Part shown: piece by piece, positions 12,116 through 43,046 of the stretch
How the letters are laid out: each line of letters begins with the position of its first letter
Position numbering within the stretch: position 1 is the first letter of the stretch
NCBI GenBank assembly: GCA_017642585.1
Contig: JAGCOR010000017.1
Location: 17,937-81,936 of the forward strand
Length of the DNA: 64,000 bases
Reading direction: 5' to 3'
Source of the DNA: Alphaproteobacteria bacterium
GTDB lineage: Bacteria > Pseudomonadota > Alphaproteobacteria > Rs-D84
Translations under genes and position numbers: made by a program
Notes under the pieces: generated by a model
What the model saw: the letters and a program-made list of their open reading frames with translations, nothing else
Told to the model about the DNA's origin: nothing
Databases searched by the model: none

Positions 12116-13420
12116 ATGAAAAAATGTATGGTTGCATTGGTTAGTTTAATGGTTGCTTTGTCTGGGGCTGCAAATGCAGAAGAAACAGGCACAACAACAA
12201 GTACATACAGACGCGTCAGCACTGTTACAAAAACTGATGGTCGTGGCAACACAATAACCAATAATTTTTATTATAACCAAGGCGCAGGTCGTGCAAGGGA
12301 TGGCAAAACCACCAAGACAACAACCAGAACTGTTAAAAAATCATCTGGTATGAAAGGGGATTCTGGTTATGCTGGTGGCGAAACCAGATCCTATAAAAAA
12401 TCAGAATCTACATATACCAAGAAAAAAACAACATCCCAGATGCGTAAATATTTCTTGGCACATCCATTCTTTCAACCATTAAAGGGTAAATTTGGTTCTG
12501 TGACAGATATTGCATTTGCACAAAACAGTTTCAAATTTAATTTGTTAAATGGTGCAACATGGGATATAGATCCAAACAGTGCAACATATAATTTAACTAC
12601 ACCTTTTAATTCTGGTGTTATTGCTGGTGATGTTGGTGCAAAAATCAAAACAAATCAATTCTTGGTAAAAGAAGATTTCAGTTTTGGTATATCTGATTCT
12701 GTGGCAATTTTGGCAATGGCACAATATGATTCTACCAAGGTTAAATTAACCGATTGGGTTGGTTCAAATGAACCAGATGCCAGTATGTCTGATTCTGGAT
12801 TTAATACATTTGGTTTTGGTCTGCAATATCGTTTTGTTGATACAAATGATTATATCGGTATGTTGGCGGGATATTATCAAAATCAACGTGATACAGCAAA
12901 CACATTTATGGCCGATTTGAAATTTGGATATAAAATTGACAGAACAACATTGTATGGATTGGGACGTATATCATATATTGATTTAACATCTGGTAATGCA
13001 TATGGTGCGTTCATCAAAGATAAAACTGGCGATTGGTTAATGATGTCCTATAACACAGATGTTGATTCCGCCACGTTTATCGAAGGTGGTGTTGGGGTAT
13101 TCGGTGTGTTAAATAAATATTTCACATTGAACGGCGAAGTATTGTTCGGTAATTATGATTGGCACAATCAATTGACATTAAAGGGTGCATTTGGTTACCA
13201 ACCGGGTGATATGTTTGCCCTGAATTTGTATGGATCCGCAGTATTGTATGATTCCGCAGATGGCAAGGTTAGAAAATATATGAATTATGATGCAAATCCA
13301 GATGCAGCCGTACAGAGTGCTTTGGGAATCACATCCAATTTAATATATACTCAGGGTGATTACAAAATCAAAAATTACAATGAATATAAATTGGGTATCC
13401 AAGCGATATTCTATTTCTAA
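12116..13420 (+). CDS. Predicted outer-membrane beta-barrel protein with a T/K/R-rich N-terminal extension
   Basis: Signal peptide MKKCMVALVSLMVALSGAANA. About 90 aa of T/K/R-rich sequence, then alternating beta-strand-like sequence ending IQAIFYF (C-terminal aromatic). AAAGGAG RBS. Confidence 0.6.
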   Translation: MKKCMVALVSLMVALSGAANAEETGTTTSTYRRVSTVTKTDGRGNTITNNFYYNQGAGRARDGKTTKTTTRTVKKSSGMKGDSGYAGGETRSYKKSESTYTKKKTTSQMRKYFLAHPFFQPLKGKFGSVTDIAFAQNSFKFNLLNGATWDIDPNSATYNLTTPFNSGVIAGDVGAKIKTNQFLVKEDFSFGISDSVAILAMAQYDSTKVKLTDWVGSNEPDASMSDSGFNTFGFGLQYRFVDTNDYIGMLAGYYQNQRDTANTFMADLKFGYKIDRTTLYGLGRISYIDLTSGNAYGAFIKDKTGDWLMMSYNTDVDSATFIEGGVGVFGVLNKYFTLNGEVLFGNYDWHNQLTLKGAFGYQPGDMFALNLYGSAVLYDSADGKVRKYMNYDANPDAAVQSALGITSNLIYTQGDYKIKNYNEYKLGIQAIFYF

Positions 13421-13446
13421 TATTTGATTAAACAAGTGTTGATGCA

Positions 13447-14289
13447 ATGAAACGGTTTGTGTTCTTTTTGATTGGTGCGTTGGTGTCTGTTAATGCCATG
13501 GCAGAAGGGGTTGTTTTGTCCGATACATCTGTCGAAGAAGAACCTTTCGTTGCACCGCAAACCCAACAACCACAACAGGTTGCTGTTGTTGACAGCTTTG
13601 ATGCCGATGTTGCACAACCCGTTGCAAAAAACAGTTTATCAAATGATACATCCGATCCTTTGTTCTTGGTCGGGGATAACAGTTTTTTATCTGATACGTA
13701 TGTTTCATTTTTAGATGATAAATTACGCATAGGTGAATATTTGGGTTATGGCATAAATAACAATTTTGTTTTTCATGCCAATATGCATTACCAAATTGAT
13801 TTTTCACACGATCATGAAAATGGTTTTTCTGCAACTGAATTTGGCGGAACATATCGTATGAATCATGGCGGTGGCAAAAATCATATAATTGCTGATGCTT
13901 TGTTCGGGTTGAAACTGTGGGGCGGTTCTCATATCAGAACACCTGAATATGCAGATTCTTCTTATTTTGCCGGTTTGCGTTTTGGTCGTCAATATAACGG
14001 AATAACATTGGCGGGTACTGTTAAATCTACTTGGGTTTTTGATGATAATCGCGGTTTATCCTATATAGATTTTATACCGGAAGCTTATTTACGATTCCAA
14101 TATAATTGGCGTATGGGATTGGGCTTTGATATTCGCAGATCAACAAATCCACATTTATTATCAAATCAAGAATGGGTTAATTTCAAACTGTTGCGTCAAT
14201 TCGGTAACACGCAATATGTTGGAAAATTAGATTATGAATTCGACAGCCATGATTTACAGGCCGGGTTCAATATCAGAATATTATTTTAA
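13447..14289 (+). CDS. Predicted outer-membrane beta-barrel protein
   Basis: Signal peptide MKRFVFFLIGALVSVNAMA. Q/P-rich linker, then beta-strand-like sequence ending GFNIRILF. Confidence 0.55.
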   Translation: MKRFVFFLIGALVSVNAMAEGVVLSDTSVEEEPFVAPQTQQPQQVAVVDSFDADVAQPVAKNSLSNDTSDPLFLVGDNSFLSDTYVSFLDDKLRIGEYLGYGINNNFVFHANMHYQIDFSHDHENGFSATEFGGTYRMNHGGGKNHIIADALFGLKLWGGSHIRTPEYADSSYFAGLRFGRQYNGITLAGTVKSTWVFDDNRGLSYIDFIPEAYLRFQYNWRMGLGFDIRRSTNPHLLSNQEWVNFKLLRQFGNTQYVGKLDYEFDSHDLQAGFNIRILF

Positions 14290-15623: not shown

Positions 15624-15980
15624 TTGGTAAATAAAGATTCTGAATTTACGTTGGCGGTGGCAACTTTGGCGGCTGCAGCCATAGGTGCAAACCCAAAATT
15701 ATCTATGAAGGATGCCGTAAAACAGGCAACTGAGATATTGCGTGGCATTTCTTTGACCCCTGAACAAATCGCAGATTCTGTGACTGATGATGCAATTCAA
15801 TGTTTTGAAGACGGCACATGGCACGTCATGTTAAAGCGGTATATCAAAAGAAAGTTTAATTTAACCCCGCAACAATATTGTGAAAAATGGGGTTTGCCTT
15901 TGGATTATCCTTTCGTTGCATCAAAATATGCCAACAAACGTTCCAAGATTGCAAAGAAACATGGGTTCGGTAAAAAATAG
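15624..15980 (+). CDS. mucR: MucR/Ros-family transcriptional regulator with the zinc ligands lost
   Basis: The C-terminus LTPQQYCEKWGLPLDYPFVASKYANKRSKIAKKHGFGKK matches the Ros/MucR signature. The zinc-finger segment reads QCFEDGTWHVMLKRYIKRKF. TTG start with an AAAGGA RBS. Confidence 0.75.
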   Translation: MVNKDSEFTLAVATLAAAAIGANPKLSMKDAVKQATEILRGISLTPEQIADSVTDDAIQCFEDGTWHVMLKRYIKRKFNLTPQQYCEKWGLPLDYPFVASKYANKRSKIAKKHGFGKK

Positions 15981-15990
15981 GGTGCGTATT

Positions 15991-18006
15991 ATGAAAGTAT
16001 ATGTAAATATCGAAAATAAAAATTGGAAAAAATATAAAATAGATTTTGAAAAAATCGCCAATGCGGCGGTTTCTGCCGAACACAAAGATGCAGAGGTTTC
16101 AATTACATTGGTTGATGATAAAACAATTCGTAAATTAAACAGGGAATATCGCGGTTTTGATAAACCTACAAATGTGTTATCTTTTGAATTGGGTGATGAT
16201 GTTTTATTGGGTGATATTTTTATATCATTAGATACTGTGAAAAAAGAAGCGGATGCAGAAAACATATCTGTCGCGGAACATACTGCGCATATGATTGTTC
16301 ATGGAATTTTACATTTGCAAGGTTTTGATCATTTAACAGATCAAGAAGCCAAGGTTATGGAATCTAAAGAAATCAAAATATTAAAAAAATTGGGATATAA
16401 AAATCCTTATGCAGATGAAGATATTGGTTGCAGTGATGAATCTTGTTGTCCTGGCAAATTTATAACAAAATTAAAAAATATAAAAATACGTGAAAATGGA
16501 TTTTGGCAATATGTGTTATATGCTGTATTCGGCGGAATTGCTTCCTTTGGTTTCGCACCATTTTATTTATGGATGTTGTTTACGTTAGGTGTGGGCGGTG
16601 CATATTATTTAACAATTAAACAAACAAAGCATGTCAGTTTTATGAAATCTTGGTTGATAACATTTCCTTTCGGTGCGTTTTATGGGATGTTTATGTTTTG
16701 GTGGGTTTTGAATTCTATTTATGTTGTCCCGGAACTGGCGCGTCAATTTGCAATTTGGACAATACCAGGATTATTGGGAATCGGTTTGATTTGCGGAATT
16801 ATTTTGTCCCTGCCTTTTGCGGTTATTAGATATGTAAAGCGCAAACCGGCACCCAGGGCGATTTTGTTTGCTGCCACTTGGATGTTTGTTTTATGGTTGC
16901 GGGAATGGATTTTTACAGGTTTTCCATGGAATCCAGTATCAAATATAACTATGCATTTTCCAATGGTTGCTAATTCTATGGCGCTGTGGGGTGCATTGGG
17001 ATTGACTTTTGTTATTATTGGTTTGATTACTTCTTTGGTTGAAATTTTGAAAAACAAAAAATGCAAATCTTGTTGGGTTATATTTTTAATGTTTGTTTCT
17101 TTGTTCGTGGTTGGATGTGTTTATGGACATCACAATATGAAAAAAATTGATAATGTAAATATGGATAATTTGCCTTTGATTAGAATTGTGCAACCCGCGG
17201 AATCTGCCGTGTACAAAATGCCAAAGACAAGGGCAGAGGCACAACAACAGGCCGATCAAAAGGTTCGCGATTTATTTGTTTGGGCAACCAAAGACACAAC
17301 AAACAAACCTGATATTATTGTTTATCCAGAAACAACTTATCCATATGTGGTTGTAGATGATAAATTCCCATTGTCACACATATTAAATACAAATGTGGTT
17401 ATGGGTGTGAATCATTATGCAGACGGCAAAATGTATAACTCTATGGTTGTGGCAAACAAATCTGGTGTGATTGATAATTTATACAGCAAATCTCATTTGG
17501 TTCCGTTCGGAGAATATCGCCCATTTGGTGATATAATTCCAACCCCCGGACAATTGGAAGCAGGTAATGGTCCAGAATTGATAGTTATAAATACTCAACA
17601 CGGTGATTTCGTTTTTGCACCAGCGATTTGTTATGAAATTATATTTTCAGATTCTTTGATTCCAAATCGTATTACACCAAATGCAATTATCAATATTACA
17701 AATGATACTTGGTTTGGTTTAACACCGGGGGTATTTCAGCATCTGGATATGGTGAAACGTTATGCGATTGAATCTGGTGTTCCTGTTATCCGTGCGAATT
17801 ATTCGGGAATCAGCGCTTTTGTCGCCAGTGATGGAAATGTTGAATCATGGATGCCGGTTGGGCAAAATGGTTCTTTGGATGGGTTTGTGTGGGGTGCGCA
17901 TGAAACGCTGTACAGAAGATTAGGGCGAAATTTATGGATGATGATTATTTTAGCTTTTTCAATAATTGCTTCAATATCCATATCCGTATTTCAGAAGAAA
18001 GATTAG
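15991..18006 (+). CDS. ybeY-lnt: In-frame fusion of YbeY endoribonuclease and apolipoprotein N-acyltransferase Lnt
   Basis: The N-terminal ~140 aa are YbeY (HMIVHGILHLQGFDH zinc motif). A linker follows at 16411..16500. Then comes a full Lnt: multi-TM N-terminus, IVYPETTYP, SKSHLVPFGEY and APAICYEIIF, which together give the E-K-C triad. No stop and no Met occur at the junction. I chose ATG 15991 because 15880 would overlap mucR. Confidence 0.8.
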   Translation: MKVYVNIENKNWKKYKIDFEKIANAAVSAEHKDAEVSITLVDDKTIRKLNREYRGFDKPTNVLSFELGDDVLLGDIFISLDTVKKEADAENISVAEHTAHMIVHGILHLQGFDHLTDQEAKVMESKEIKILKKLGYKNPYADEDIGCSDESCCPGKFITKLKNIKIRENGFWQYVLYAVFGGIASFGFAPFYLWMLFTLGVGGAYYLTIKQTKHVSFMKSWLITFPFGAFYGMFMFWWVLNSIYVVPELARQFAIWTIPGLLGIGLICGIILSLPFAVIRYVKRKPAPRAILFAATWMFVLWLREWIFTGFPWNPVSNITMHFPMVANSMALWGALGLTFVIIGLITSLVEILKNKKCKSCWVIFLMFVSLFVVGCVYGHHNMKKIDNVNMDNLPLIRIVQPAESAVYKMPKTRAEAQQQADQKVRDLFVWATKDTTNKPDIIVYPETTYPYVVVDDKFPLSHILNTNVVMGVNHYADGKMYNSMVVANKSGVIDNLYSKSHLVPFGEYRPFGDIIPTPGQLEAGNGPELIVINTQHGDFVFAPAICYEIIFSDSLIPNRITPNAIINITNDTWFGLTPGVFQHLDMVKRYAIESGVPVIRANYSGISAFVASDGNVESWMPVGQNGSLDGFVWGAHETLYRRLGRNLWMMIILAFSIIASISISVFQKKD

Positions 18007-18157
18007 TATCTGGGGATCTGTTGTCATCGATTGATTTTATAAGGGACGCAATCGAAACATTTTGTTCCTTTGCAATATTTTGCAGGCAATCAAAAAATTC
18101 CTGTTCCAGTGAAATACTGGTTTGATGTCCCGACAAAGATACAGATATTTTATGCAT
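17945..18157 (-). CDS. Ribbon-helix-helix protein (RHH_4-like)
   Basis: 70 aa. VSLSGHQTSISLEQEFFDCLQNIAKEQNVSIASLIKSIDDNR...NLSSEIRIWIL matches the alphaproteobacterial RHH_4 pattern as I remember it. Its 3' end overlaps the lnt 3' end by 62 bp. Confidence 0.7.
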   Translation of the reverse strand: MHKISVSLSGHQTSISLEQEFFDCLQNIAKEQNVSIASLIKSIDDNRSPDTNLSSEIRIWILKQLLKKLK

Positions 18158-18160
18158 GAA

Positions 18161-18595
18161 TTAAATTTTTCCAACAACCAAACAATCTATCATTGCGCGA
18201 TATGGATCATCATATTTGCGCATCACGGACAAAGTTAAATTATCCAACATAACGCAATTACCCAATGCATCAACTGCAAACCAAAATAAATCATTACGGC
18301 CAAATACGGTTTTGCCGAATAAATTTTTATTTCCAGATACATCTTTGTTTATATCCAATATAGATGGAACTGGATATTTTATATCACGTTCAATTTGTTT
18401 TGGTCCAAAAATATATGCAGATCCCAATATAATTCCAGAACAAGAATTATATAAATCAACCAAAAACGTAGGCAACATTGCAGCGCGTATACCCTGTAAA
18501 TTTGCCGACGCCAAAGTAATTTCGTTCTGCGTTGCAGGTGGTGTAAAGGTTGCACCACGTGATTTCATAAAAGATAAAAATTCTTGTTTCGTCAT
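18161..18595 (-). CDS. Hypothetical protein, possibly SUKH/SMI1-KNR4-like
   Basis: 144 aa from ATG 18595, which lies 1 nt after the upstream stop (TAACATG). LPTFLVDLYNSCSGIILGSAYIFG and FWFAVDALGNCVMLD resemble SUKH-1 immunity-type domains. This is pattern recognition only. Confidence 0.4.
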   Translation of the reverse strand: MTKQEFLSFMKSRGATFTPPATQNEITLASANLQGIRAAMLPTFLVDLYNSCSGIILGSAYIFGPKQIERDIKYPVPSILDINKDVSGNKNLFGKTVFGRNDLFWFAVDALGNCVMLDNLTLSVMRKYDDPYRAMIDCLVVGKI

Positions 18596-18596
18596 G

Positions 18597-19103
18597 TTAT
18601 TCGTTTCCTCTGCCACCAGCAAAATTCATAGCGGCCACACTTAATCTGTCGGATGTAGCGTTACCGCCATCACCGCCACCAGCCAAATGAGTTGTTACAT
18701 AAATCTTTTTTTCTGGGTTTGGTAAAAACAGTTTTGTTGCATCACTTTGTTCTATTATAAATCTGTCCAGATTTTGACTGTGTGGAAAAGTCAAACACAT
18801 AAACATATTATCAACGCTTAATTCGCCACCCAAGGTTAAAGGAATCCTGAATCTGATAGATGTGTTTTCTGGCATTTGTTTGCCCATAATTAAATTCATA
18901 AATTCATCTTGGGATAAATTCATAAAAGCGATTTCTTCAAAAGAATCTGTTAATGATGACATAAATTCATGACGCAACATGGAATAGGTTTTAAACCAAT
19001 CTTTGTCCACACAAGAACGTTTGGGTGTGTATTCCATAACAGGCATATCATCCATACCAAGAGAACTTAATCTCGCCATTGCAGAATCTTGGTTGAATTG
19101 CAT
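18597..19103 (-). CDS. Hypothetical 168-aa protein with a degenerate HNH/colicin-DNase-like segment and a Gly-rich tail
   Basis: RFRIPLTLGGELSVDNMFMCLTFPHSQNLDRF resembles the beta-beta-alpha-Me core (HH..P...GG....DN......H), but RF replaces the leading HH. The C-terminus is HLAGGGDGGNATSDRLSVAAMNFAGGRGNE. Confidence 0.35.
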   Translation of the reverse strand: MQFNQDSAMARLSSLGMDDMPVMEYTPKRSCVDKDWFKTYSMLRHEFMSSLTDSFEEIAFMNLSQDEFMNLIMGKQMPENTSIRFRIPLTLGGELSVDNMFMCLTFPHSQNLDRFIIEQSDATKLFLPNPEKKIYVTTHLAGGGDGGNATSDRLSVAAMNFAGGRGNE

Positions 19104-19129
19104 TTGTGTTATCCCTTTGTTACGTTACA

Positions 19130-20077
19130 TTACTGCATAAGATGCGGTGCCATAGATATTATATTATCAATATAATCTGAATATGCATCAAAATTTTCTT
19201 TTTCGTCTTCGTCTATGCTATCAGCCGGGTTATTAGAGATAAATTCAGATATTTCTTCAATTGAATGGAATACCATTATGTCATCGCCGGGGGTGTAGAC
19301 GTTCTTGGTATCCAATATAAATGCAAATATATTGATTGGAATATCTTCCAGTGTTTCTTCAAACAAAGCCCTTAATTTACCGATTGAGGCTTTCAGTTTA
19401 TTCATATCACAATCAACCGCACCCATCCACAAAACTTCGTGATTACCAATCGCAAATAAATTCGTTTTTAATCCTGCGATTGTTAAATTAGGTTTAACCA
19501 CATAACTGTTTTGTTCAAATATATTGCGTAATTCTTGGTCGTATATAGTTGTATTTTGTTGTGGTCCAGAATTATTTGGTGCAGGGTTTTGTTGTTGCAT
19601 ATAATTATTTTGCGCCAAAGTTTCCATGTTTCTTGGCAGATTCAATTTTGGCGGGCGATTTAATAAAACCGCAGTAGGAATATCAGATACCTGGGGTTCA
19701 GGTTCGGTGTGTGTGTTTTGCACCGGTTGGGTTTGTTGGACCGTTTGTTGTGGCGCAGGCTGTTTTTGTTCCATCACAGGTTGTTGATGAATTTGAGGTG
19801 TTGGTTGTTGTGGAATTACTGGTTTGGGTAATTTTCTGAAACGTGGGCGGAATATTAAATACAAACCAAATATCAATATAAACACACCAACACCCAAAGA
19901 TATATAGAAAGTTTTATCAATTGGGGTATGGGTGGCCTGAAGCGAAGCCAATTCTTGCCAGTGTTTTGCAGACAGCAAATTAAATCCAAATTTTGTGTTC
20001 AACCAGAAGGTCATTCCCAACACAACAGATATGATCAACAATATAGATAATAAAACGTGTTCAAAAAATTTTCTCAT
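19130..20077 (-). CDS. Hypothetical membrane protein (2 TM, P/Q-rich linker, C-terminal globular domain)
   Basis: Two TM helices in the first 80 aa. A linker rich in PQQPTPQIHQQPVMEQKQPAPQQTVQQTQP. An unrecognised ~150-aa acidic C-terminal domain. Confidence 0.6.
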   Translation of the reverse strand: MRKFFEHVLLSILLIISVVLGMTFWLNTKFGFNLLSAKHWQELASLQATHTPIDKTFYISLGVGVFILIFGLYLIFRPRFRKLPKPVIPQQPTPQIHQQPVMEQKQPAPQQTVQQTQPVQNTHTEPEPQVSDIPTAVLLNRPPKLNLPRNMETLAQNNYMQQQNPAPNNSGPQQNTTIYDQELRNIFEQNSYVVKPNLTIAGLKTNLFAIGNHEVLWMGAVDCDMNKLKASIGKLRALFEETLEDIPINIFAFILDTKNVYTPGDDIMVFHSIEEISEFISNNPADSIDEDEKENFDAYSDYIDNIISMAPHLMQ

Positions 20078-20101
20078 TTCGGTTTAATTGTATCATATTT
20101 T

Positions 20102-20794
20102 ATGATAAACTGGAATAAAATGATTGAACCAAATGAGATTTTTTTTGAAAACGACCAAAGAATAGCCCTGTGGTGTAATGATGTCCAGGACACAACTGAT
20201 TTAGCAGGCATCGCAAATTTGATTTTGGAAAAGAAAATACCTTTGGTTTCTGTGCCACCTGAAACGGTTTCTTTTTTGTGGGCGTGCCTTGAAAAGACAG
20301 ATGTAAAAATATTGACGCGGTATAATTTTTCAACATTTGGCCAATCTTTTGAAAATGCTTTTTCCGAAATATCCAAGAATATATCAGATGTTCAAAAGCA
20401 GGGCGCACACGGGGTTCAAATATTTTTGGACATGAATAATTTTGAAAAATTTATAAATACTATGTCTGTGATAAGGGACGGATTGTTCTTTTGGCATGAA
20501 TTAAGCATAATTATGGATATAGATAAAATAGAAATATTTGATTGGGATTTGATATTTAAAAAATTGCGCGAAATCAGGGCCACCGCCTTTGGTATTTATT
20601 CCAGTGAAGATAATTCAGGTAAAAATTCTAAATTCATAGGCCGAATTTTCACTATGTTGAAAAATTGGGATTTTATCGGCGATTTGCATTTAATTTTGAA
20701 AAATGATTTTTATCACATAGACCAGGTTATAAGATTGGTGGATGCAGAAAAGCCAGAATTGGTCGACAAAATACACGTTTTTATAGAATCTTAA
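20102..20794 (+). CDS. Hypothetical cytoplasmic protein
   Basis: Long ORF with no family I can recognise. The start is uncertain (20057, 20102 or 20120); 20057 would overlap the divergent gene. Its stop overlaps the trmB stop. Confidence 0.5.
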   Translation: MINWNKMIEPNEIFFENDQRIALWCNDVQDTTDLAGIANLILEKKIPLVSVPPETVSFLWACLEKTDVKILTRYNFSTFGQSFENAFSEISKNISDVQKQGAHGVQIFLDMNNFEKFINTMSVIRDGLFFWHELSIIMDIDKIEIFDWDLIFKKLREIRATAFGIYSSEDNSGKNSKFIGRIFTMLKNWDFIGDLHLILKNDFYHIDQVIRLVDAEKPELVDKIHVFIES

Positions 20795-29383: not shown

Positions 29384-29989
29384 TTACCAAGTTGGTGCGT
29401 GATCGCCTTCTTTGATAATTGGTTGTTCGTCTTCCCAAACTGACAGGCCAGATTTCAAATCTGTTAATGTCATTTGCAGATAATATTCTACACGTGTATC
29501 AACAGATGAAAACCAACCAGATTGCAGTTTCAAATTTCTTTGCAACATTTTACCAGACAAAGACATATTTGGTGCAATCAATGTGCCGGTATTGGCAATT
29601 GTTTTTTGATCATATTCTTTGTCATTACGTAATGTACGAACATTGGAAGAGGTTGTATCTTCGCCACTGTAATTTGTTGCGATTTGAGCAGAGCCTGATT
29701 TCACTAAAGTCGTTCTAATTTTTTTAGTCAAAACATCTGTGTCAAAACGTTGTGCTGTATCGTTTTTAATATTGGCGATTGCAATCACAGGATCTTTTAC
29801 TTTTTTGAAAGCGCCACTTTCAATCATAGATTTTGTCATTTTTTCCGCCGTATTGGTCCAATCGCGGTATTCCAATTCCATGACATTTTGCATGCGGGCA
29901 ACATCGCTGGAATCGTTCAGATCAACCACGCGGGTTTCAGCACATGCGCACAGTGCTAAACATACTGCACAAGGTATCAATTTTTTCAT
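29384..29989 (-). CDS. lpoB: Penicillin-binding protein activator LpoB-like lipoprotein
   Basis: Lipobox LALCAC. IAIANIKNDTAQRFDTDVLTKKIRTTLVKSG and YYLQMTLTDLKSG match the LpoB (COG3417) pattern. Confidence 0.7.
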   Translation of the reverse strand: MKKLIPCAVCLALCACAETRVVDLNDSSDVARMQNVMELEYRDWTNTAEKMTKSMIESGAFKKVKDPVIAIANIKNDTAQRFDTDVLTKKIRTTLVKSGSAQIATNYSGEDTTSSNVRTLRNDKEYDQKTIANTGTLIAPNMSLSGKMLQRNLKLQSGWFSSVDTRVEYYLQMTLTDLKSGLSVWEDEQPIIKEGDHAPTW

Positions 29990-30010
29990 GTTGTTTTTCT
30001 CCTTTTGTTT

Positions 30011-31246
30011 TTATTTCAAATTTATAAATTTTTTATCGGTTATTGTATTATGTTCACGAATATATATTAAATTATTATCTGAATTTTTCAATTTTAATTT
30101 TATATCGTCATCTATGAAATCGTTTTGTGTAATATTTTGTTTTGTTCTGTCAATGCGTTGAACATATATGTTCTTTGGCAAAGTTGCCCAGGTGCGAACA
30201 TCTGTGTTGGAAGATGTCGCAGTATAAACCGTTGATAACAGCCCCAACAAAGAGGCGGAATCACTGTGTGAATTATACATTGTCGCCTGCATTGCGGTTT
30301 TAGATATCGCAGATGTGTATGAACGTAAGATCTCATTTGTTCTGTATTCGTTGTATTCAGTTAAAAACATTTTATCAACATCTGCCAATAATTGTGAATT
30401 GGGTGGGGTGGGGGTTGATTGGTCGAAATAAGGTTCTGAAAAACTGAAATAAACCAGACCAATTTTTGGAACATAAAAACTGAAATCTTTTTCTTGTAGA
30501 CGTGGGGCAAATCCAGATTCATAAAAAACCCAAGTCGTGTTTTTTGGCTTTTTATGTTGTTGTGCCAATTTTAAATCTGTTTGTATAAAAGTATTATTCC
30601 CCATCATACCATTTGCGCGTTTAAGATAAATTTCGGCATTTTCAAAATCGCCATCGTTCAAAAAATAAATTCCAGATAAATACATTAATGCCGGATTCAT
30701 GATATCTGTGAATGCGGCCCAATCATTTTGATTTTTATCTAATATTTCCTGTAATTGAGAGTTTTTAGATAATTTGTCTTTGTTTTCTTCTATTAACTTT
30801 TTATATTCAATCGACATATTTTGTTGGCGATTATAAGATTGATTTATAACGACGCGAACATTCGACCAATCTTGCAGTGCCAACAAATTCCAAATTTGAT
30901 AATAAGATACAAACAAAGAATCCATCATGTATGGTTTATATGAATTGACCCCATTACCAAACAACAAACCAGATGTTTCGCGCAGGATAGACGAAGAGGT
31001 TTCGTGTAAATTTCTTTTGTTAAATTCTTCAAATGCCGCATCACTTTCGCTGAATTTATTTTCATGGAACAGGGCAGTTGCATCAATTAATAAATCAAGA
31101 TTATTTTCATTTTTTATATCTTTATCTTTGGTAACCGTTTCAAAATCGCCGTGTGAAAAACTTTTTTGAACATCATCCAGATGTGATTTTGTAACAGATG
31201 CACATCCTGATAACAGCAAACACAAAGTGATAAATTTGACGAACAT
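30011..31246 (-). CDS. COG3014-like lipoprotein, the usual partner of LpoB
   Basis: Lipobox LLLSGCAS. YKPYMMDSLFVSYYQIWNLLALQDWSNVRVVINQSYNRQQ resembles the conserved COG3014 core. Confidence 0.5.
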   Translation of the reverse strand: MFVKFITLCLLLSGCASVTKSHLDDVQKSFSHGDFETVTKDKDIKNENNLDLLIDATALFHENKFSESDAAFEEFNKRNLHETSSSILRETSGLLFGNGVNSYKPYMMDSLFVSYYQIWNLLALQDWSNVRVVINQSYNRQQNMSIEYKKLIEENKDKLSKNSQLQEILDKNQNDWAAFTDIMNPALMYLSGIYFLNDGDFENAEIYLKRANGMMGNNTFIQTDLKLAQQHKKPKNTTWVFYESGFAPRLQEKDFSFYVPKIGLVYFSFSEPYFDQSTPTPPNSQLLADVDKMFLTEYNEYRTNEILRSYTSAISKTAMQATMYNSHSDSASLLGLLSTVYTATSSNTDVRTWATLPKNIYVQRIDRTKQNITQNDFIDDDIKLKLKNSDNNLIYIREHNTITDKKFINLK

Positions 31247-31254
31247 ATAAAATC

Positions 31255-33516
31255 CTATTTCAAAGGTTCCAAAATTTTAATTTCTTTGGTTTGTGGATTA
31301 TATATTTTTGGAACGCCATCATATCCCATAACTGCATGGTGAGAAGGAATCAAGAATTCAGGCAATGGGGACGCTTCACCCATAAGTGCTTTGGCGTGTA
31401 ATTTTTTCTGAACTTCGTTTGAATTGAGTATATGGAATTCTTGTTCCGCTTCTATTGGGCGGTGATACCAACCTTGATATAAGATCAACTGTTTTCCTTT
31501 TTCGATTTTCATAATGTCGTATGGTGAATATAATGGGGATTCTTTTGTTTCTTCGACTTCTTTGCCGTCTTTGTCTTTCTTCTTTTCTTTCTTCTTTTCC
31601 ATACCAATCATTTCAGAAAACTTTTTCGCGGTTTCAAAATCGTTTTGACGCAAAACAACTTTTGCTGCGGTTGTGGAAATAATTGTAGCGGCCGCATCTG
31701 CACCATATCTTTCTTGAATCTGGTGAATATCCTGGCCAATAATTAAATAGGATACTTTGCATCCACGTCCTAAATCTGGACCTTGGATAACCGCGTCCAA
31801 TTTTTGCATTTTTGGCATTTCATCCAAAGCAAACAACACAGGGTATGGCCCAACTTTTTTGCCATCAACGATTGTGCCCGGGGTGTGTGCCAATAAATAA
31901 TTAGACATCAATTCAATAAATATAGCGGTAATTGGGTTGACCGCTTGGGCATCAACCAGGTTCACAGACAAATAAACACTGACAGGTTTAACCTTGCCGT
32001 CCCTTGGGTCTTTCAATCCGCGTAAATCTTCAAAGTGGAAATCAGAATGGCTGGTTCTGTTGCGAACAGCGGCATTACGGAATATTGCCAAACCTTCGAT
32101 CATTGTTGATAAAATAGATCCACGTTCTTTATCTGGGGTATTTGCTAATTGGGTTAATTCAGATACAGAACGGCTGGCGTATGCGTAACGACGTGCTTCG
32201 TCCACGGCGCCCAATAACAAATCTTTCATTGGATCTGCCATCATAACCATTTGATCGCCTTGCTTTCTGCGTTCGGCCATTTGTTCTGCGATTGCAACCT
32301 GGCTGGTGGTAATCCAATCAAGAATCATAGATAAAGATGCCTCTTTGCCACGCCATGAATCTGGGATGTGTTCCCATGTTCCAACGTGCACATAATTCAT
32401 CGCATTTAATTCGCCGTTCTTTAACAGGGAATAGGCCGCATACGCATTTGGATCATTTATCATAGATAAATAATAATCACCCAACACATTGGCATCATCC
32501 GTATTAAAGGTTCCATTGTTTATACGTGCAAAGAAATAATCATCTGCTTTGGCACGTTCTACTTTGGATACAATAAAGTTAATAAGACCAGACAGCCCCG
32601 CACGTCCTGTGTTTGCCCAGTGGGGATCTTGGACGCTGTCTTTGACTAAAACCTTGCTGATTGCGTCGATATACAAATCACGTTGTTCGGGTGCAAAAGG
32701 AACATGTTCTGGCGATAAAGGATTCCATGATGGGTAATAAATACCTTTTTCTGGTTCATCCTGACCCGCCCAATTCAGAATAAATACATGACTGACCGTC
32801 GCACGATACCCAGAAGTAACCTGTTTCAATTCTGGTTTAGGATCGTTTATAATCATAGAAACACTATCACAATCTAAAATTGTTGGAATAATAACCCCCT
32901 GGGTTTTACCGGTTCCCGGAGGCGCCAAACACAAAGCAGACAAAGGTTCGTCAAACATTAATGGAGTTAATTTTCCTTTGTATTTAAAATACCCCAACAC
33001 CATCATGAAGCCTTTGAACAAACCTTCCTTGTTTTTGAAATCAGAAGCCATTTTTTTAATATCATCTGCGGTTGCTTTACGGGCAGATGTTTTATCAAAA
33101 GTATCTTTACCCGCAGGGTTAAATTCAAGTTTCACAGAATCATCAACCAAGAAGAAATATGCAATAAGTGGTATAATAGGTAATATACATGGATAATCAG
33201 GATGAGATAATATGCGGGTCAGCCAAAATGGTATTTCAGCGATAACCGATAAACCACCCGTCAGGGCAGCATTTCTTAAAAATATCAAAGACCAATGTTC
33301 TGTGGCGGGGCCCCAACCATAGCGCCATATATGTTCCGCAATGAAAGATAAACCAAACATCAACGCGCACAACAACCAAATCAACACAGACCAACGTATA
33401 TTCCAGAAATCACGTGCAACGGGCAGTTGCTCGTGTTCTTTATATGCTGCTGAATCAAAGATTTTTAAACCTTTGCCAGAACCAGATAAAGAGAAAATGT
33501 TGAACTTTGTTGCCAT
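31255..33516 (-). CDS. Type IV secretion coupling protein (VirD4/TraG/TraD family ATPase)
   Basis: N-terminal TM helices. Walker A LAPPGTGKTQGVIIPT and Walker B-like VLFALDEMPKM, plus LIIGQDIHQIQERYG. K/E-rich insert EKKKEKKKDKDGKEVEETKE. The start is either 33516, which lies 7 nt after a TGATATAAT motif, or 33555. Confidence 0.8.
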   Translation of the reverse strand: MATKFNIFSLSGSGKGLKIFDSAAYKEHEQLPVARDFWNIRWSVLIWLLCALMFGLSFIAEHIWRYGWGPATEHWSLIFLRNAALTGGLSVIAEIPFWLTRILSHPDYPCILPIIPLIAYFFLVDDSVKLEFNPAGKDTFDKTSARKATADDIKKMASDFKNKEGLFKGFMMVLGYFKYKGKLTPLMFDEPLSALCLAPPGTGKTQGVIIPTILDCDSVSMIINDPKPELKQVTSGYRATVSHVFILNWAGQDEPEKGIYYPSWNPLSPEHVPFAPEQRDLYIDAISKVLVKDSVQDPHWANTGRAGLSGLINFIVSKVERAKADDYFFARINNGTFNTDDANVLGDYYLSMINDPNAYAAYSLLKNGELNAMNYVHVGTWEHIPDSWRGKEASLSMILDWITTSQVAIAEQMAERRKQGDQMVMMADPMKDLLLGAVDEARRYAYASRSVSELTQLANTPDKERGSILSTMIEGLAIFRNAAVRNRTSHSDFHFEDLRGLKDPRDGKVKPVSVYLSVNLVDAQAVNPITAIFIELMSNYLLAHTPGTIVDGKKVGPYPVLFALDEMPKMQKLDAVIQGPDLGRGCKVSYLIIGQDIHQIQERYGADAAATIISTTAAKVVLRQNDFETAKKFSEMIGMEKKKEKKKDKDGKEVEETKESPLYSPYDIMKIEKGKQLILYQGWYHRPIEAEQEFHILNSNEVQKKLHAKALMGEASPLPEFLIPSHHAVMGYDGVPKIYNPQTKEIKILEPLK

Positions 33517-33523
33517 GCCTGAT

Positions 33524-33538
33524 ATTATATCATAAAAA
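33524..33538 (-). promoter_or_regulatory. Extended -10 promoter motif, exact TTTTTATGATATAAT
   Basis: Minus-strand exact copy. The TATAAT ends 7 nt before the ATG at 33516 of the coupling-protein gene, which suggests a possible leaderless transcript. Confidence 0.45.
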
Positions 33539-33569
33539 GAAACCTTTTTATACATAAAGATTTAAAAAA

Positions 33570-39206: not shown

Positions 39207-39254
39207 GTCTTTTTTTGATTGGGGTTTTGTGGTAAAATTGAAAGAATGAGAGAG

Positions 39255-42200
39255 ATGATGAAAAAAGTATTGTTTTTTGCTTTTTTATCGGTTTGTTTGT
39301 CGTGCGATTTTGCATTTGCTGCAAGGTGTGTTCCTACAACAACTTCGAATGGGTCTCAAAATGAATATTTATTCCCAAACCAAGACTCTAAAAATAGGAG
39401 AAAGAATGTAATGATTTGTGGTGGCAGATCTGATGAGTCTTGTCCGTCAAATGCCTATGTCGGAATTATACATACTATAGATGAAAGTCATTATCGGGGT
39501 GATGAAAAAATAACAGTAGCTGCTGTGTATAGATGTGATACCGATGGTGGACGCAGTTGGGAATTTGCAGGGTATGATGAATTTAAAAGGGACAACCCGA
39601 ATAGTATAATTACATCATGTGCGGGGTTTGATGGATATAAATGTAATTATGCTTTGAACAATGATGTAAACAAGGTTGTTTGTTGTCTGAACAGTTTGAT
39701 ATGTGCCAACCCAAAAATGGCAGATCGAATGATATGGGTTGGTTGTGGTGTGGAGCAGAATGGATGCATACAATCTAATAAATATTGGTATAATGGAAAA
39801 TGTAATGATAATCCACAATCTGCACAATCGACTTCTCAATCTGCACCGCAACAGCAAGCACCGCAACAAACTTCTTCAAATTCTGGTCAAACCATGAGAA
39901 ATGTTTCTGTTGTTCCAGGAAGCGCATGCGGAATTGCCCAGATATCCAGCAATCCTGTGGAAAACACTAAACACGCCAAAAATCTGCATACACCAGGGCG
40001 TTATTTAATTTGCATGAACCCAAACAATTTATATCGTCCAGCGGCAGGATCCAGCAGTCGCTATGTTTATGATCAATTTAATTGTTCAGATAATACGTTG
40101 TTATATGATGATTCTGAAAACAAAATTATAAAATGTTTATATTCTACTGGTGGATGGGCAGAAGGAAATCATGGTAATTTACCAACATGTGCACAAGATG
40201 GCCAAGGAAAAACCCAAGCTGGAACAATCAGCATATCTGGTGGTGAAATTGTTATATATGGTGACAAGATAACTTTTTCTTCTGGAAATGTTAATTCACA
40301 TACGTGGAAAAATATATGCAAAGTACAACGTTCTGCTGCACCAGAAACAAAAAATTATTCTGGGGTTATAAAAGATAAAGATACAGGCGAACCGTTGCAA
40401 TCCGTTAACATATCGATACCAGGTACAACCAGTGGGTGTACAACAGATGCAGAAGGAAAATTTGGAAATGGTGATAATTATTGCAGATTGACATCAGATA
40501 CTGTGACGATTTCATATGTTGGGTATGAAACAATCACTGGTAAAAAACTGGCATTGACAGGTAATGACATTAAAATGAAACAAGTTGCTACCCAATTAAA
40601 TGCGACTGATGTTGTTGCTGTAGATAATAAGACAATTTGCACTAACAATAATGGAACATGGGATGAACAAAACAATACATGCAGATGTCCAAGTAATAAA
40701 CCCAGATGGGAAGGAACTGGGGCTAACCCTGGCTGTTTATCAACTTGTACATATTTAGGCAGACATCCAAACCAAGCTTCACCAGAACGTTTGGCATGTT
40801 GCAGGGCGGGCAGTGCGACAAAATGGGAAGGCAATGATACCCAGGGTAATTGTATTTGTATTGATGCCAGCAGACATGTTGATGCGTCTAAACAATGGGA
40901 CGGCACGACTTGTGCTGTGGTAAATAATCCACCAACACCAGAAGAACAATGTACTGCGTTGGGAGATTTTGTCAGATGGGATGCCACGACATCACAATGT
41001 GTTTGCACGGATGAAACAAAAAGATTAGATGGTACACAATGTATTCCTGCAAACAGCGGTGGACCTGAATTAACACCAGAACAAGAATGTACCGCATTGG
41101 GAGAAATTGTCAGATGGGATGCCACGACATCACAATGTGTTTGCGTTGATGAAACAAAAGTATTAAATAATGGTCAATGTGTTGACAAAGATGCACCTGC
41201 AACCCCAGTAACCCCAGAAAAAACACCAGAAGAAATTTGTAACGAATTAGGTGCTGATGTCGCGTTGTGGGAAGGTGGCGTATGTAAATGCAAAGATCCA
41301 AAGAAAGAATATCAAAATGGTCAATGTGTTGATAAACCAGAACCTGTCAGAACACCACAAGATGCGTGTAATGATTTGGGTGAAATAGCTGTTTGGCAAA
41401 ATAATCAATGTGTATGCGTAGATGAAGTGAGTGATTTTGTATATGATGAAGCAACCAAAACAGGTAAATGTGTTGAAAACGAAAAAAAGAAAAAAGCCAA
41501 GGCGTTAAAAGATAAAACAGATGCGTATAAAAATGCAAAAGACAAAGAACAATCTTTAGCGAACAGAACTTTGACCGCTGCAACCACTGCCGCAACCGGA
41601 TTGGGAATGATGGAATTAATGATGGGCAAAGCGGAACAGAAAGCGGATGCAGATGCCGAACAAGATATGGCGGCATACATGGCAACAATGCGTTGCACAT
41701 ATGCGGGCGGTAAATCTGTAAAGGCCGGCCCCGAAGAAATAGAATTACCTGGTGGAAACGATGGTAAATTGATGTCATACCGCAGTGAATATATAGCATT
41801 GGCAAAAAGTTTGAAAGAACGCAAAACAGCCATGGATATGTTACCAGGTATAGAAAGTGAAGAGATATTAGATAAAGCAGAAATGGGATTATACGATGAT
41901 GAAAACAAAGGTATAGAAAGTGGTACATATGCATCATTGTATAGAGCGAAACAGGGCAGTGAAGAAGACCAAAAGAAGATAGATGCTGACAAAGAAAAAT
42001 CTGCTAAACGAGTTAAATATGGTGCGACTGCGTTGGCGGCGGGTGCTGCGGTTGGTGTTGTTGGTAACAGTTTAATAAATGGTAAATTGGGTGAAAAACT
42101 GAAAGCAGCGAAAGAAGCCAAAAAAGAAAAGAAAAGCAAAAGCCCGAATGTAAAAGAAGATAATCGTCCTGTTATCAAACACGCACCAAATCCAGAAAAT

Positions 42201-43046
42201 ATGAAATCAGAAGCACCTGTTATAACAGATAGCGGTTCATCAGATTCTGGACAGGATAATGGTGTTGCAAATGTTGTTGGTGTTTTAATTGGAACAACAG
42301 GTAGTGGTGGGGCAAGTGCTACAACTCCGTCTGGTGGCAATGTTGGTGGTACAAGTCCAACAGTAGAAAGTCAAAGAATAAGTTACGATGAACCTGATGT
42401 AGATGGAACAAAATGGAGTGAATCTCAATATTTACAATGTTTTGCACATTTCTTCCCGAATGATAGATATTCTTCTAACTTAAGATCTTATTGGGCTAAA
42501 TCACATAACAATCAATATTGCAGTGGCTATACTGGTGGTAAATATATATATGATTTCAAGAAAAACCCAAATCCATGTCCACAACAAAAATTTAGATCTT
42601 TGAATGCTGGTGAATGGGAAATTCAAATAAGAAACGGTAATAAATCTGTCAAGGGTATAGCTGTTTGCAATAATACTGCTGGTGGTCAGGAGGATGAATT
42701 GCGCGATAATGTTGATGCACACACGGACAGCGGTAAACATTGTTGGTGCAAGATAACCCAGACAGATTTGAATGATTGTTTGGTTACCCAGAAATTCTCA
42801 TGGGAATACAGGGGAGAGTTTGGACTTGTGGATGCAGAAGACGTGGAATGGTTTAATGACAACAAGACAAGTTCATATGTAGATCTATATCCTGCAGGAT
42901 ATTATCAAGAAGGGCAAAATAGTTGTTTGTGGGAATGTGCTGATGCATGTGCATACCATTTGTTAGATTATGGTCGTCATCGTCAAAGACAAATGCATGG
43001 TGTGCCACAGATAGTAGATTTTGTTAAAAAGTATAATAATATGTAA
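39255..43046 (+). CDS. Giant cysteine-rich mosaic exported protein of unknown function
   Basis: Uninterrupted ORF. The signal peptide is MMKKVLFFAFLSVCLSCDFAFA, and the start is uncertain among 39219 TTG, 39246, 39255 and 39258. Segments in order: an N-terminal Cys-rich domain, a Q/S linker, a CarboxypepD_reg-like segment (40355..40585), EGF-like Cys repeats including 138-bp tandem units (40938..41480), K-rich segments, a Gly/Ala hydrophobic module (41560..42130), and a Cys-rich C-terminal domain. Confidence 0.85.
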   Translation: MMKKVLFFAFLSVCLSCDFAFAARCVPTTTSNGSQNEYLFPNQDSKNRRKNVMICGGRSDESCPSNAYVGIIHTIDESHYRGDEKITVAAVYRCDTDGGRSWEFAGYDEFKRDNPNSIITSCAGFDGYKCNYALNNDVNKVVCCLNSLICANPKMADRMIWVGCGVEQNGCIQSNKYWYNGKCNDNPQSAQSTSQSAPQQQAPQQTSSNSGQTMRNVSVVPGSACGIAQISSNPVENTKHAKNLHTPGRYLICMNPNNLYRPAAGSSSRYVYDQFNCSDNTLLYDDSENKIIKCLYSTGGWAEGNHGNLPTCAQDGQGKTQAGTISISGGEIVIYGDKITFSSGNVNSHTWKNICKVQRSAAPETKNYSGVIKDKDTGEPLQSVNISIPGTTSGCTTDAEGKFGNGDNYCRLTSDTVTISYVGYETITGKKLALTGNDIKMKQVATQLNATDVVAVDNKTICTNNNGTWDEQNNTCRCPSNKPRWEGTGANPGCLSTCTYLGRHPNQASPERLACCRAGSATKWEGNDTQGNCICIDASRHVDASKQWDGTTCAVVNNPPTPEEQCTALGDFVRWDATTSQCVCTDETKRLDGTQCIPANSGGPELTPEQECTALGEIVRWDATTSQCVCVDETKVLNNGQCVDKDAPATPVTPEKTPEEICNELGADVALWEGGVCKCKDPKKEYQNGQCVDKPEPVRTPQDACNDLGEIAVWQNNQCVCVDEVSDFVYDEATKTGKCVENEKKKKAKALKDKTDAYKNAKDKEQSLANRTLTAATTAATGLGMMELMMGKAEQKADADAEQDMAAYMATMRCTYAGGKSVKAGPEEIELPGGNDGKLMSYRSEYIALAKSLKERKTAMDMLPGIESEEILDKAEMGLYDDENKGIESGTYASLYRAKQGSEEDQKKIDADKEKSAKRVKYGATALAAGAAVGVVGNSLINGKLGEKLKAAKEAKKEKKSKSPNVKEDNRPVIKHAPNPENMKSEAPVITDSGSSDSGQDNGVANVVGVLIGTTGSGGASATTPSGGNVGGTSPTVESQRISYDEPDVDGTKWSESQYLQCFAHFFPNDRYSSNLRSYWAKSHNNQYCSGYTGGKYIYDFKKNPNPCPQQKFRSLNAGEWEIQIRNGNKSVKGIAVCNNTAGGQEDELRDNVDAHTDSGKHCWCKITQTDLNDCLVTQKFSWEYRGEFGLVDAEDVEWFNDNKTSSYVDLYPAGYYQEGQNSCLWECADACAYHLLDYGRHRQRQMHGVPQIVDFVKKYNNM
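40938..41480 (+). repeat. In-frame tandem repeats (138 bp = 46 aa) inside the giant gene
   Basis: Units 40938..41075 and 41076..41213 are highly similar and share the exact 36-mer GTCAGATGGGATGCCACGACATCACAATGTGTTTGC (40971..41006 and 41109..41144). Two more diverged units follow, up to about 41480. The protein motif is C-x3-G-x4-W-x5/7-C-x-C-x-D-x9/13-C. Confidence 0.9.

Follow-up and report, generated by a model that had tools for sequence, protein, structure and literature searches.

A conserved operon of Enterousia-lineage Alphaproteobacteria encoding a catalytically degenerate HNH-family protein and a SUKH-like partner, with probable relatives flanking virD4 in other lineages

In this work, we describe a compact operon of four genes, here called g1 to g4, found in a 64,000-nucleotide (nt) stretch of DNA from an Alphaproteobacteria bacterium of the order Rs-D84 (assembly GCA_017642585.1, contig JAGCOR010000017.1, positions 17,937 to 81,936). 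This whole stretch is called the window, and coordinates refer to it unless another sequence is named. All four genes lie on the minus strand. The first, g1 (19130..20077), encodes a predicted inner-membrane protein of 315 amino acids (aa), in which an N-terminal domain with two transmembrane (TM) helices is joined by a P/Q-rich tether to a cytoplasmic C-terminal domain; g2 (18597..19103; 168 aa) encodes a catalytically degenerate protein of the HNH family; g3 (18161..18595; 144 aa from its ATG) a protein assigned to the SUKH superfamily, YrhA-like and the conserved partner of g2; g4 (17945..18157; 70 aa), the last gene of the operon, a ribbon-helix-helix protein of the RHH_4 type. The genes are separated by 26, 1 (TAACATG) and 3 nt, respectively: tight packing, coordinates and gaps had been reported in an earlier sequence-only reading of this DNA, and were confirmed from the open reading frames (ORFs). 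An upstream TTG start would extend g3 to 153 aa; the 144-aa form has the same M-T start in 60 of 71 orthologues. Scans for promoters and terminators performed no better than on shuffled sequences.

Conservation was followed by taking one genome per GTDB species, which gave 73 loci, many from Candidatus Enterousia and the others from alphaproteobacterial metagenome-assembled genomes (MAGs), and by checking gene order with tblastn searches of the window proteins; the closest locus, at 99% identity, belongs to a MAG from horse faeces. Wherever the contig reaches, the order gltX-trmB-orf245, g1-g2-g3-g4, convergent ybeY-lnt is kept (73 out of 73), and across the species examined the operon is single-copy and occupies the same place in the chromosome, flanked by lnt and trmB. 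All four genes occur in conserved order in 70 to 73 of the 73 loci, with g1 orthologues in 72, absences corresponding to contig ends: the genes are real, and their co-occurrence in other genomes, which had been suggested as a check, goes beyond chance. Median identities to the window, calculated over 72 species, are 38% for g1, 63% for g2, 60% for g3 and 67% for g4, to be compared with 65% for trmB, 63% for ybeY-lnt and 73% for gltX, used as reference genes; the length of g2 is fixed at 165-169 aa. Within the 73 loci, neither orphan immunity arrays nor polymorphism were found at the operon. The locus is chromosomally fixed, with no oriT, relaxase or mobile-element signatures, and a scan of PADLOC-DB returned no match for g2, g3 and g4 and noise only, at E-values of at least 0.02, for g1. 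Given the fixed order, the housekeeping-like identities and the invariant tail of g2 described below, this is a vertically inherited core operon, under constraint of housekeeping level, and not a mobile island. Enterousia belongs to the order Rs-D84, with genomes of 0.75-1.0 Mb and a coding density of 81-94% (PMC12306168): its retention throughout the species, in genomes smaller than 1 Mb, speaks in favour of an important role.

Homologues of g2 number more than 500, nearly all of them about 168 aa long and 54-99% identical; the few which carry a source name come from uncultured gut or rumen Alphaproteobacteria. An exhaustive search of 1.84 billion representative proteins with a g2 profile returned 72 clusters only, which separate into four groups when aligned. 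The Enterousia type makes up group I; group II resembles it and has the same tail, with variable residues at the "catalytic" positions; in group III, the domain is preceded by a P/Q-rich region and, at the N-terminus, by an MWDWS motif, and is followed by a related tail (SGGKxxxDRSVYAGF...GR); the members of group IV are short and tail-less. None of Pfam, NCBIfam and PADLOC annotates the family, and its proteins are labelled "hypothetical" wherever they are found.

Taken alone, g2 matched no HNH model, direct scans of Pfam, NCBIfam and PADLOC gave nothing usable, and alignments of g1, g2 and g3 restricted to Enterousia produced only noise in profile searches of the PDB. Its relationship to HNH proteins follows from a chain of similarities which is continuous, though indirect. 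The g2 profile reaches, with E-values of 1e-8 to 1e-14, relatives encoded next to the coupling-protein gene virD4 in other lineages; a tblastn search of PLSDB with a group III domain then identifies 459 enterobacterial plasmids, 434 of which predicted to be conjugative, the target being a protein annotated as "HNH endonuclease" (E-value 4e-13, 31% identity over 85% of the query); and this plasmid protein exceeds the gathering score of the Pfam HNH model PF01844 (27.1 versus 21.4 bits). When groups III and IV are combined in a profile, its top PDB match is the DNase of pyocin AP41 (4uhp; E-value 0.016), with the HNH core motif in register (E-x-F-x-[IV]-H-x-x-x-P-x-x-x-G-G...N-L...H-x-x-I-H-K). 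The degenerate HNH domain which the sequence-only reading had recognized in g2 is thus borne out, both in its ancestry and in the substitution of its catalytic positions.

The putative beta-beta-alpha core of g2 (aa 76-120; 18744..18878) was delimited by the motif census, the AlphaFold2 (AF2) model and Foldseek. The motif RFRIPLTLGGELSVDNMFMCLTFPHSQ is present in the translation, and the core carries R84-F85...G92-G93...N99...S109...D113 where HNH proteins have H-H...GG...N...H...H. A census of these positions covered 72 matched Enterousia-lineage orthologues and 50 related, VirD4-linked loci, 44 of which gave a motif match. The pyocin reads HH...N...H...H and the plasmid protein HH...N...H...S, the related loci H[L/I]...N...H...H in 43 of the 44, and the Enterousia lineage R[F/L/W/M]...N...[S/A]...D in 72 out of 72. 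In colicin E9, H103 is the general base, and H102, H127 and H131 are the metal ligands. With these roles, the position of the general base, three residues before a conserved proline, is occupied by F, L, W or M in all 72 orthologues and by L or I in 43 of the 44 matched loci, so that the base is lost in the whole alphaproteobacterial clade; in all 72 Enterousia orthologues Asn99 is retained, while the three ligand histidines are also lost, being replaced by R84, S/A109 and D113. The active site has been lost stepwise, from the pyocin type to the Enterousia type. Judging from these residues, g2 has probably lost the ability to cleave DNA. Where the metal would sit, a salt bridge may possibly join the invariant R84 and D113, which would be a structural compensation within a pseudo-enzyme and lends itself to testing.

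The AF2 model of g2 is of mediocre quality, with a predicted local distance difference test score (pLDDT) of 68.5; two strands (residues 81-85 and 100-104) are followed in it by a helix (109-118). HNH proteins, among them Cas8-HNH, ZRANB3 and Rhs2-CT, account for ten of the top 14 PDB matches found by Foldseek, none of these matches being significant (E-values of at least 0.3). Beyond the core, a Gly-rich linker leads to an invariant C-terminal peptide (aa 139-168, GGGDGGNATSDRLS...GRGNE; 18600..18689). The conserved pattern, GG.GGN..DRL...A....R.N, corresponds to invariant alignment columns at G143, G144, G146, G147, N148, D152, R153, L154, A158, R165 and N167. The tail had been described as Gly-rich and disordered: it is indeed rich in glycine, and its pLDDT lies below 50, but it is more than a disordered extension, being among the most conserved parts of the protein. 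We also considered g2 as a divergent SspB, an idea suggested by the SspB-DUF4169-RHH_4 arrangement which is the ancestral context of g4, and by the linker and C-terminal peptide of SspB itself. This candidate was rejected: the g2 core is modelled as of the alpha/beta, beta-beta-alpha type, SspB gave no match, and homology to the HNH family is clear.

A g3-type gene lies directly downstream of the g2-type gene in every case, in the Enterousia loci, in the VirD4-linked loci and on the inspected plasmids. Window g3 has no Pfam match, and its NCBIfam match to the YrhA family is below threshold. Among 21 orthologues, 18 match NCBIfam NF038335 (YrhA family), with a best E-value of 3.4e-9, under the curated cut-off. 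In the distant loci, the genes which follow g2-like genes encode g3 homologues of 144-152 aa (BLASTP 1e-8), and for 8 out of 10 of these VirD4-linked proteins the only Pfam matches, again below cut-off (E-values of 5e-4 to 0.1), are to the SUKH clan (SMI1_KNR4, SUKH_5 and SUKH_6). On the plasmids, a YrhA-family gene follows the "HNH endonuclease" gene in the inspected records, with a gap of 9 nt in two of them. In a search with a g3 profile, the matches listed, which are the best 120, include only close Enterousia orthologues. Consistent matches below cut-off, together with a homologous HNH+YrhA pairing on plasmids, make the assignment of g3 as a remote SUKH/YrhA protein, as proposed by the sequence-only reading, a sound one. 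For HNH toxins of the pyocin AP41 kind, SUKH proteins are the immunity partners that have been proposed; one SUKH protein, Syd, acts together with the SecY translocon, and a role in guiding toxins to export machinery has been suggested for the superfamily (PMC3113570).

Conjugative plasmids of the IncHI type (MOBH, MPF_F) carry the HNH+YrhA pair within their transfer region, for instance at 76212-77789 of NZ_CP031568.1, where it adjoins trhH and a gene for a TraG N-terminal domain; the pair is present on 458 other plasmids as well. No functional study of this plasmid pair was found in the literature.

The protein encoded by g1 is made of three parts, which the sequence-only reading had distinguished and which hydropathy, composition and charge confirm. 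The N-terminal domain (aa 1-80; 19838..20077), defined by hydropathy and alignment, has hydrophobic segments at about aa 3-27 and 55-78, that is, two TM helices around a conserved loop of about 30 aa (F-N-[IL]-x4-H-W). The same domain is found in VirD4-linked g1-like paralogues, one of which, of 165 aa (3914-4411 of contig L078), consists of the TM part only. The linker (aa 81-175; 19553..19837), defined by composition and alignment, is 41% P+Q over aa 86-175, varies in length among species and contains a conserved RPP(K/R)LNLP motif. The C-terminal domain (aa 176-315; 19133..19552) is acidic, with an isoelectric point of 4.2. Both ends of the protein are predicted to be cytoplasmic by the positive-inside rule, because the N-terminus and the stretch following the second TM helix are positively charged.

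Direct scans of Pfam, NCBIfam and PADLOC with g1 gave nothing usable, and the C-terminal domain was characterized through its AF2 model, Foldseek, Pfam matches in relatives and alignment. The model (pLDDT 88, predicted template-modelling score 0.81) has an alpha-beta-beta-beta-alpha-beta core. Foldseek found nothing significant in the PDB (best E-value 0.038), and its highest-ranked matches are mostly PD-(D/E)xK nucleases: Tk-TIP26 (probability 0.92), Cap4, a Cas4-family protein, NucS/EndoMS, bunyaviral cap-snatching endonucleases, T7 endonuclease I and BamHI. Modelling followed by Foldseek had been proposed as a check on the proteins; for g2 and for this domain it brings HNH and PD-(D/E)xK folds, respectively, to the top ranks, non-significantly in both cases. 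Weak matches to Pfam NERD (PF08378), covering nearly the whole model and below threshold, were obtained for 3 of 6 g1 relatives, and for one homologue in the database a precomputed annotation as NERD exists. The catalytic D...(D/E)xK signature is not conserved, no acidic/Lys triad being present in the Enterousia alignment, and the Enterousia domain is about 25 core residues shorter than that of the VirD4-linked relatives. A degenerate PD-(D/E)xK or NERD-like fold is suggested by the model. The combination of two TM helices and a P/Q-rich linker had raised the idea of a ZipA-like protein or of a VirD4 remnant; both were discarded, as g1 has no BLAST similarity to VirD4 and its C-terminal domain is modelled with a PD-(D/E)xK-like fold.

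On contigs carrying distant g2 homologues, the g2-like gene directly follows a gene for a VirD4/TraG coupling protein, and is followed in turn by a g3 homologue. The order g1-like (one to three paralogues), virD4, g2-like, g3-like was found, as far as the contigs extend, in 46 metagenome loci and in three contigs of related alphaproteobacteria (L074, L075 and L078). The window also has a virD4 gene (31255..33555, minus strand), encoding a type IV coupling protein (T4CP) of 766 aa with Pfam matches to T4SS-DNA_transf (E-value 5.9e-50), TraG-D_C and TrwB_AAD_bind. It is surrounded by housekeeping genes, 11 kb away from the operon, and its product, the putative functional partner of the operon, is 44-49% identical to the VirD4 proteins encoded between g1-like and g2-like genes in related lineages. 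None of the Enterousia loci has a virD4 gene closer than 6 kb to the operon. The form g1-g2-g3-g4 without virD4 also occurs, with other flanks, in a Rickettsiales MAG (L076) and in an assembly contig (L077). The simplest history would be the removal of virD4 from between g1 and g2. Linkage to virD4 also accounts for the membrane protein g1, which the sequence-only reading could not place.

Directly after virD4, the window has, at 29384-31246 on the minus strand, genes for an orphan lipoprotein of 411 aa with an LSGC lipobox and for an LpoB-family lipoprotein (PF13036, E-value 3.9e-33), in the place occupied by the g2 and g3 homologues in other lineages. The VirD4-linked loci of other lineages encode no homologue of the 411-aa protein; considered as a possible replacement of g2, this protein was rejected as an unrelated, lipobox-bearing lipoprotein. 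Upstream of the g1-like genes in VirD4-linked loci (1271-4411 of L078 and its equivalents in L103-L123) are conserved orphans of 359 and 490 aa, with no Pfam match. These orphans and the extra g1 paralogues could be further components of the same system.

The fourth gene has a separate origin. Its product matches Pfam PF13467 (RHH_4) over positions 3-66 of 67, with an E-value of 2.9e-22 and 78.9 bits for a cut-off of 25, so that the RHH_4 type named by the sequence-only reading is well founded. The protein shares 44-46% identity with RHH_4 proteins from Sinorhizobium and Shinella. In S. meliloti (CP090106.1, 2389497-2394829), the genes SspB-DUF4169-RHH_4 are convergent with an AsmA-family gene; in L077 (8994-12102) the RHH_4 gene is still convergent with AsmA, and g1-g2-g3 stand in place of sspB-DUF4169. 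In L076, as in L077, g4 follows g3; it is absent from the VirD4-linked loci. From this synteny, g4 is a core alphaproteobacterial gene, beside which g1-g2-g3 came to lie and with which they then travelled. The earlier view of g4 as the small regulator of a toxin-immunity module is contradicted by its orthology to the Sinorhizobium gene; it probably regulates transcription, without being specific to the module.

As a whole, these comparisons make it very probable that g1, g2 and g3 are orthologous to the genes which flank virD4 in other gut alphaproteobacteria, and that g2 and g3 descend from a pair formed by an HNH-DNase toxin and a SUKH (YrhA) immunity protein. What the operon does today can be proposed with much more reserve. 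We tentatively favour the view, drawn from homology and gene order, that it is a domesticated, non-catalytic and vertically inherited accessory module of VirD4, either adaptor or conserved cargo, from which virD4 has been relocated. A mechanism may be sketched along these lines, somewhat more tentatively still. The g3 protein would bind g2 as an immunity protein binds its toxin, giving a stable, non-toxic cytoplasmic heterodimer; g1 would be a platform in the inner membrane, exposing its acidic pseudo-nuclease domain on the P/Q-rich tether; and the heterodimer would dock on g1, on VirD4 or on both, through the invariant peptide that follows the Gly-rich linker, much as SspB docks on ClpX, or IcmS-IcmW and DotM on DotL. 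The complex could in this way help the recruitment or the gating of substrates of a type IV secretion system (T4SS). The strongest form of this view is rather doubtful: the HNH+SUKH pair and the membrane-tethered pseudo-PD-(D/E)xK domain would be stoichiometric, non-catalytic subunits of the type IV coupling complex, a new kind of T4CP adaptor whose g2 peptide docks on the VirD4 hexamer, and gut alphaproteobacteria with genomes smaller than 1 Mb would depend on this adaptor for their lifestyle.

Several observations weigh against a VirD4 accessory module. The operon is not adjacent to virD4 in the window, so that the link rests on orthology with other lineages; among 20 further window ORFs scanned with Pfam, no other T4SS genes (virB) were found, only housekeeping genes. 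Group IV relatives are tail-less, and therefore the tail cannot be a universal docking element. The folds of g2 (Foldseek E-values of at least 0.3, pLDDT 68) and of the g1 C-terminal domain (best E-value 0.038) are individually non-significant. The VirD4-linked relatives keep a histidine four residues before the conserved proline, which could act as the base in a shifted register, and these proteins may thus still be nucleases. Furthermore, an adaptor and a secreted cargo look alike when sequence is the only guide.

This last point leads to the possibility, on the whole an unlikely one, that g2 is itself a conserved substrate (effector) of the T4SS, its C-terminal tail being read by VirD4, with g3 as a chaperone or former immunity protein, g1 handing it over, and a partner or host cell as the target. 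The invariant peptide of g2, at the C-terminus and preceded by a flexible linker, is placed where T4SS signals typically lie; in relatives a g2-like gene comes directly after virD4; homologous HNH+YrhA pairs belong to toxin-immunity biology (PMC3113570); and a precedent is documented in Lysobacter, whose HNH effector LtdD binds VirD4 through a C-terminal domain (PMC13600162). With the general-base histidine gone throughout the clade and the metal ligands lost in Enterousia, such an effector would however need an action other than DNA cleavage; its housekeeping-like rate, fixed length and lack of diversification would be unusual for effector/immunity pairs, and group IV has no tail to be read. 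Along a different line, g1 (through its C-terminal domain), g2 and the RHH protein might form a relaxosome-like set, binding or processing DNA for transfer or uptake through VirD4. In conjugative systems T4CP genes are flanked by genes for a relaxase and RHH accessory proteins; the operon likewise offers two DNA-enzyme folds, PD-(D/E)xK-like in g1 and HNH-like in g2, and an RHH DNA binder in g4. The window VirD4 has TraG-D_C ("TraM recognition") and TrwB DNA-binding domains, and on IncHI plasmids the HNH+YrhA pair is found within the Tra2 region. This explanation is nevertheless quite improbable: both nuclease folds are devoid of catalytic residues, g4 is orthologous to a core gene unrelated to conjugation and is missing from the VirD4-linked loci, no relaxosome role is known for a SUKH partner, and oriT, relaxase and mobile-element signatures are wanting at a chromosomally fixed locus.

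RHH proteins are often regulators of toxin modules, and the succession of an HNH and a SUKH gene is the classic architecture of nuclease toxins and their immunity proteins (PMC3113570). It was towards a toxin-immunity or defence module that the sequence-only reading had pointed; in an active module of this sort, possibly directed against phages, g2 would be the toxin and g3 its immunity protein, while g4 would act as regulator and g1 as an effector or sensor in the membrane. The pairing that inspired it is real, and ancestral, but an active module of this kind is very improbable in a single-copy operon found at the same chromosomal position in 73 out of 73 species, evolving slowly at housekeeping rates, with no polymorphism, no orphan immunity arrays and no PADLOC match for any of the four proteins. 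The catalytic residues of g2 are replaced, g4 is a core-gene orthologue at the end of the operon and not an upstream antitoxin, and the conserved linkage is with virD4 rather than with mobile elements. Equally little probability can be given to the idea that the four genes are unrelated neighbours, packed together by genome reduction. Coding density is high in these genomes (81-94%, PMC12306168), g4 and lnt as well as orf245 and g1 overlap, and g4 is of independent ancestry. For g1-g3, however, this reading is largely refuted by synteny across lineages: genes similar to all three gather around virD4 in distant lineages whose flanks are entirely different, g2 and g3 homologues are paired on gammaproteobacterial plasmids, and g1-g2-g3-g4 stay together in L076 and L077 in spite of other neighbours.

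The domesticated VirD4 accessory module that we favour has counterparts, partial in each case, among known systems. The closest is the enterobacterial HNH+YrhA pair, known from plasmids and from chromosomes under its PGAP names, in which the C-terminal domain of the first protein aligns with the g2-like relatives, gene order is the same and the gap is short; yhhZ-yrhA of E. coli is a pair of this kind. The plasmid protein, of 345-353 aa, has a full HH...N...H motif and passes the Pfam HNH threshold, whereas g2, of 168 aa, has lost the catalytic residues, carries a conserved tail, and is chromosomal, vertically inherited and linked to virD4 and g1. Compared with the DNases of colicins and pyocins, the second histidine of the HH pair is hydrophobic both in the VirD4-linked relatives and in g2, which in addition replaces the metal-ligand histidines; those DNases pair with an Im-type four-helix protein, while the partner of g2 is a SUKH protein. 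With the SUKH polymorphic toxin systems (Zhang, Iyer & Aravind 2011, PMC3113570) the operon shares a nuclease-fold protein immediately followed by a SUKH protein, and the guiding to an export machine proposed for them, as in Syd and SecY, fits the VirD4 link seen here. It differs from them in being part of the core genome, with a dead active site, no polymorphism, no N-terminal trafficking domain in g2 and no tandem immunity arrays.

Another group is that of the bacteria-killing T4SS effectors recognized by VirD4, namely the X-Tfe proteins with their XVIPCD and LtdD of Lysobacter (PMC13600162); the likeness to g2 lies in an HNH-superfamily domain joined to a C-terminal element in a VirD4-dependent system. 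The X-Tfi immunity proteins are periplasmic lipoproteins, unlike the cytoplasmic SUKH proteins. The XVIPCD, of about 120 aa, is unrelated to the g2 tail of about 30 aa, LtdD is an active DNase, and X-Tfe-type systems have no known g1-like partner. Two further likenesses are functional analogies only, with no relationship of sequence or fold to the operon proteins. In Dot/Icm, dotM lies just upstream of the T4CP gene dotL, and DotM, DotN and IcmS-IcmW are partners of DotL: the dotM-dotL arrangement recalls that of g1-like genes and virD4, and small cytoplasmic partner proteins are common to both. The SspB adaptor of ClpX shares with g2 the succession of a folded domain, a flexible linker and a conserved C-terminal peptide. 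To judge from its model, the g1 C-terminal domain may share the core of NERD and PD-(D/E)xK proteins (PF08378), from which it departs by the lack of the catalytic D/ExK signature and by a core shorter than in the VirD4-linked relatives. Type II toxin-antitoxin modules with an RHH antitoxin usually have it upstream and co-varying; g4 is instead the last gene, and is absent from the VirD4-linked loci.

The component superfamilies, HNH+SUKH pairs and HNH effectors of T4SSs are already known. A search of the literature found no description of the g2 family, of its linkage to VirD4, of a g1 partner or of a dead, housekeeping-like HNH/SUKH pair, and nothing on RF32 with T4SSs or on NERD with a coupling protein. 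To our knowledge, type IVA systems are thought to recruit their substrates mainly through VirD4 alone, elaborate adaptor complexes being known only for Dot/Icm (IVB). If VirD4 indeed had two dead nuclease folds and an immunity-protein fold as its partners, the operon would exemplify the evolution of cellular machinery out of a conflict system, and would provide, besides, a first handle on the interactions with partners or hosts of the Rs-D84/Enterousia bacteria, which are uncultured, have genomes smaller than 1 Mb, and are common in the guts of ruminants, horses, chickens and humans.

Some features of the neighbouring genes deserve mention. The convergent ybeY-lnt (15880-18006, plus strand) is one long ORF, in which the endoribonuclease YbeY and the apolipoprotein N-acyltransferase Lnt are fused; the same YbeY+LNT_N+CN_hydrolase fusion is called as a gene of 596 aa in L076, from the Rickettsiales MAG. 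The last 62 nt of the window ORF are shared with g4, and its GTG start at 15880 is probably placed too far upstream, as it reaches into mucR. The latter encodes a MucR/Ros-family regulator (15624-15980, plus strand; PF05443, E-value 7e-23), lies between rarA and ybeY-lnt, and is detectable in just 37 of the 73 related loci, so that it must be variably present or relocated. On the other side, orf245 (20057-20794, plus strand) is divergent from g1, the two start regions sharing 21 nt. It has no match in Pfam, NCBIfam or PADLOC, is kept in 68 of 73 Enterousia-lineage loci at 31-56% identity, and has a weak homologue at the same position in L076 (E-value 2.6e-6); it may or may not be a member of the module. 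Farther away, two successive ORFs of 434 and 280 aa follow ftsK (12116-14289, plus strand), neither with a Pfam match, the second resembling a beta-barrel-type protein with a signal peptide. At 39219-43046, on the plus strand, lies an ORF of 1275 aa whose sole domain is CarboxypepD_reg-like.

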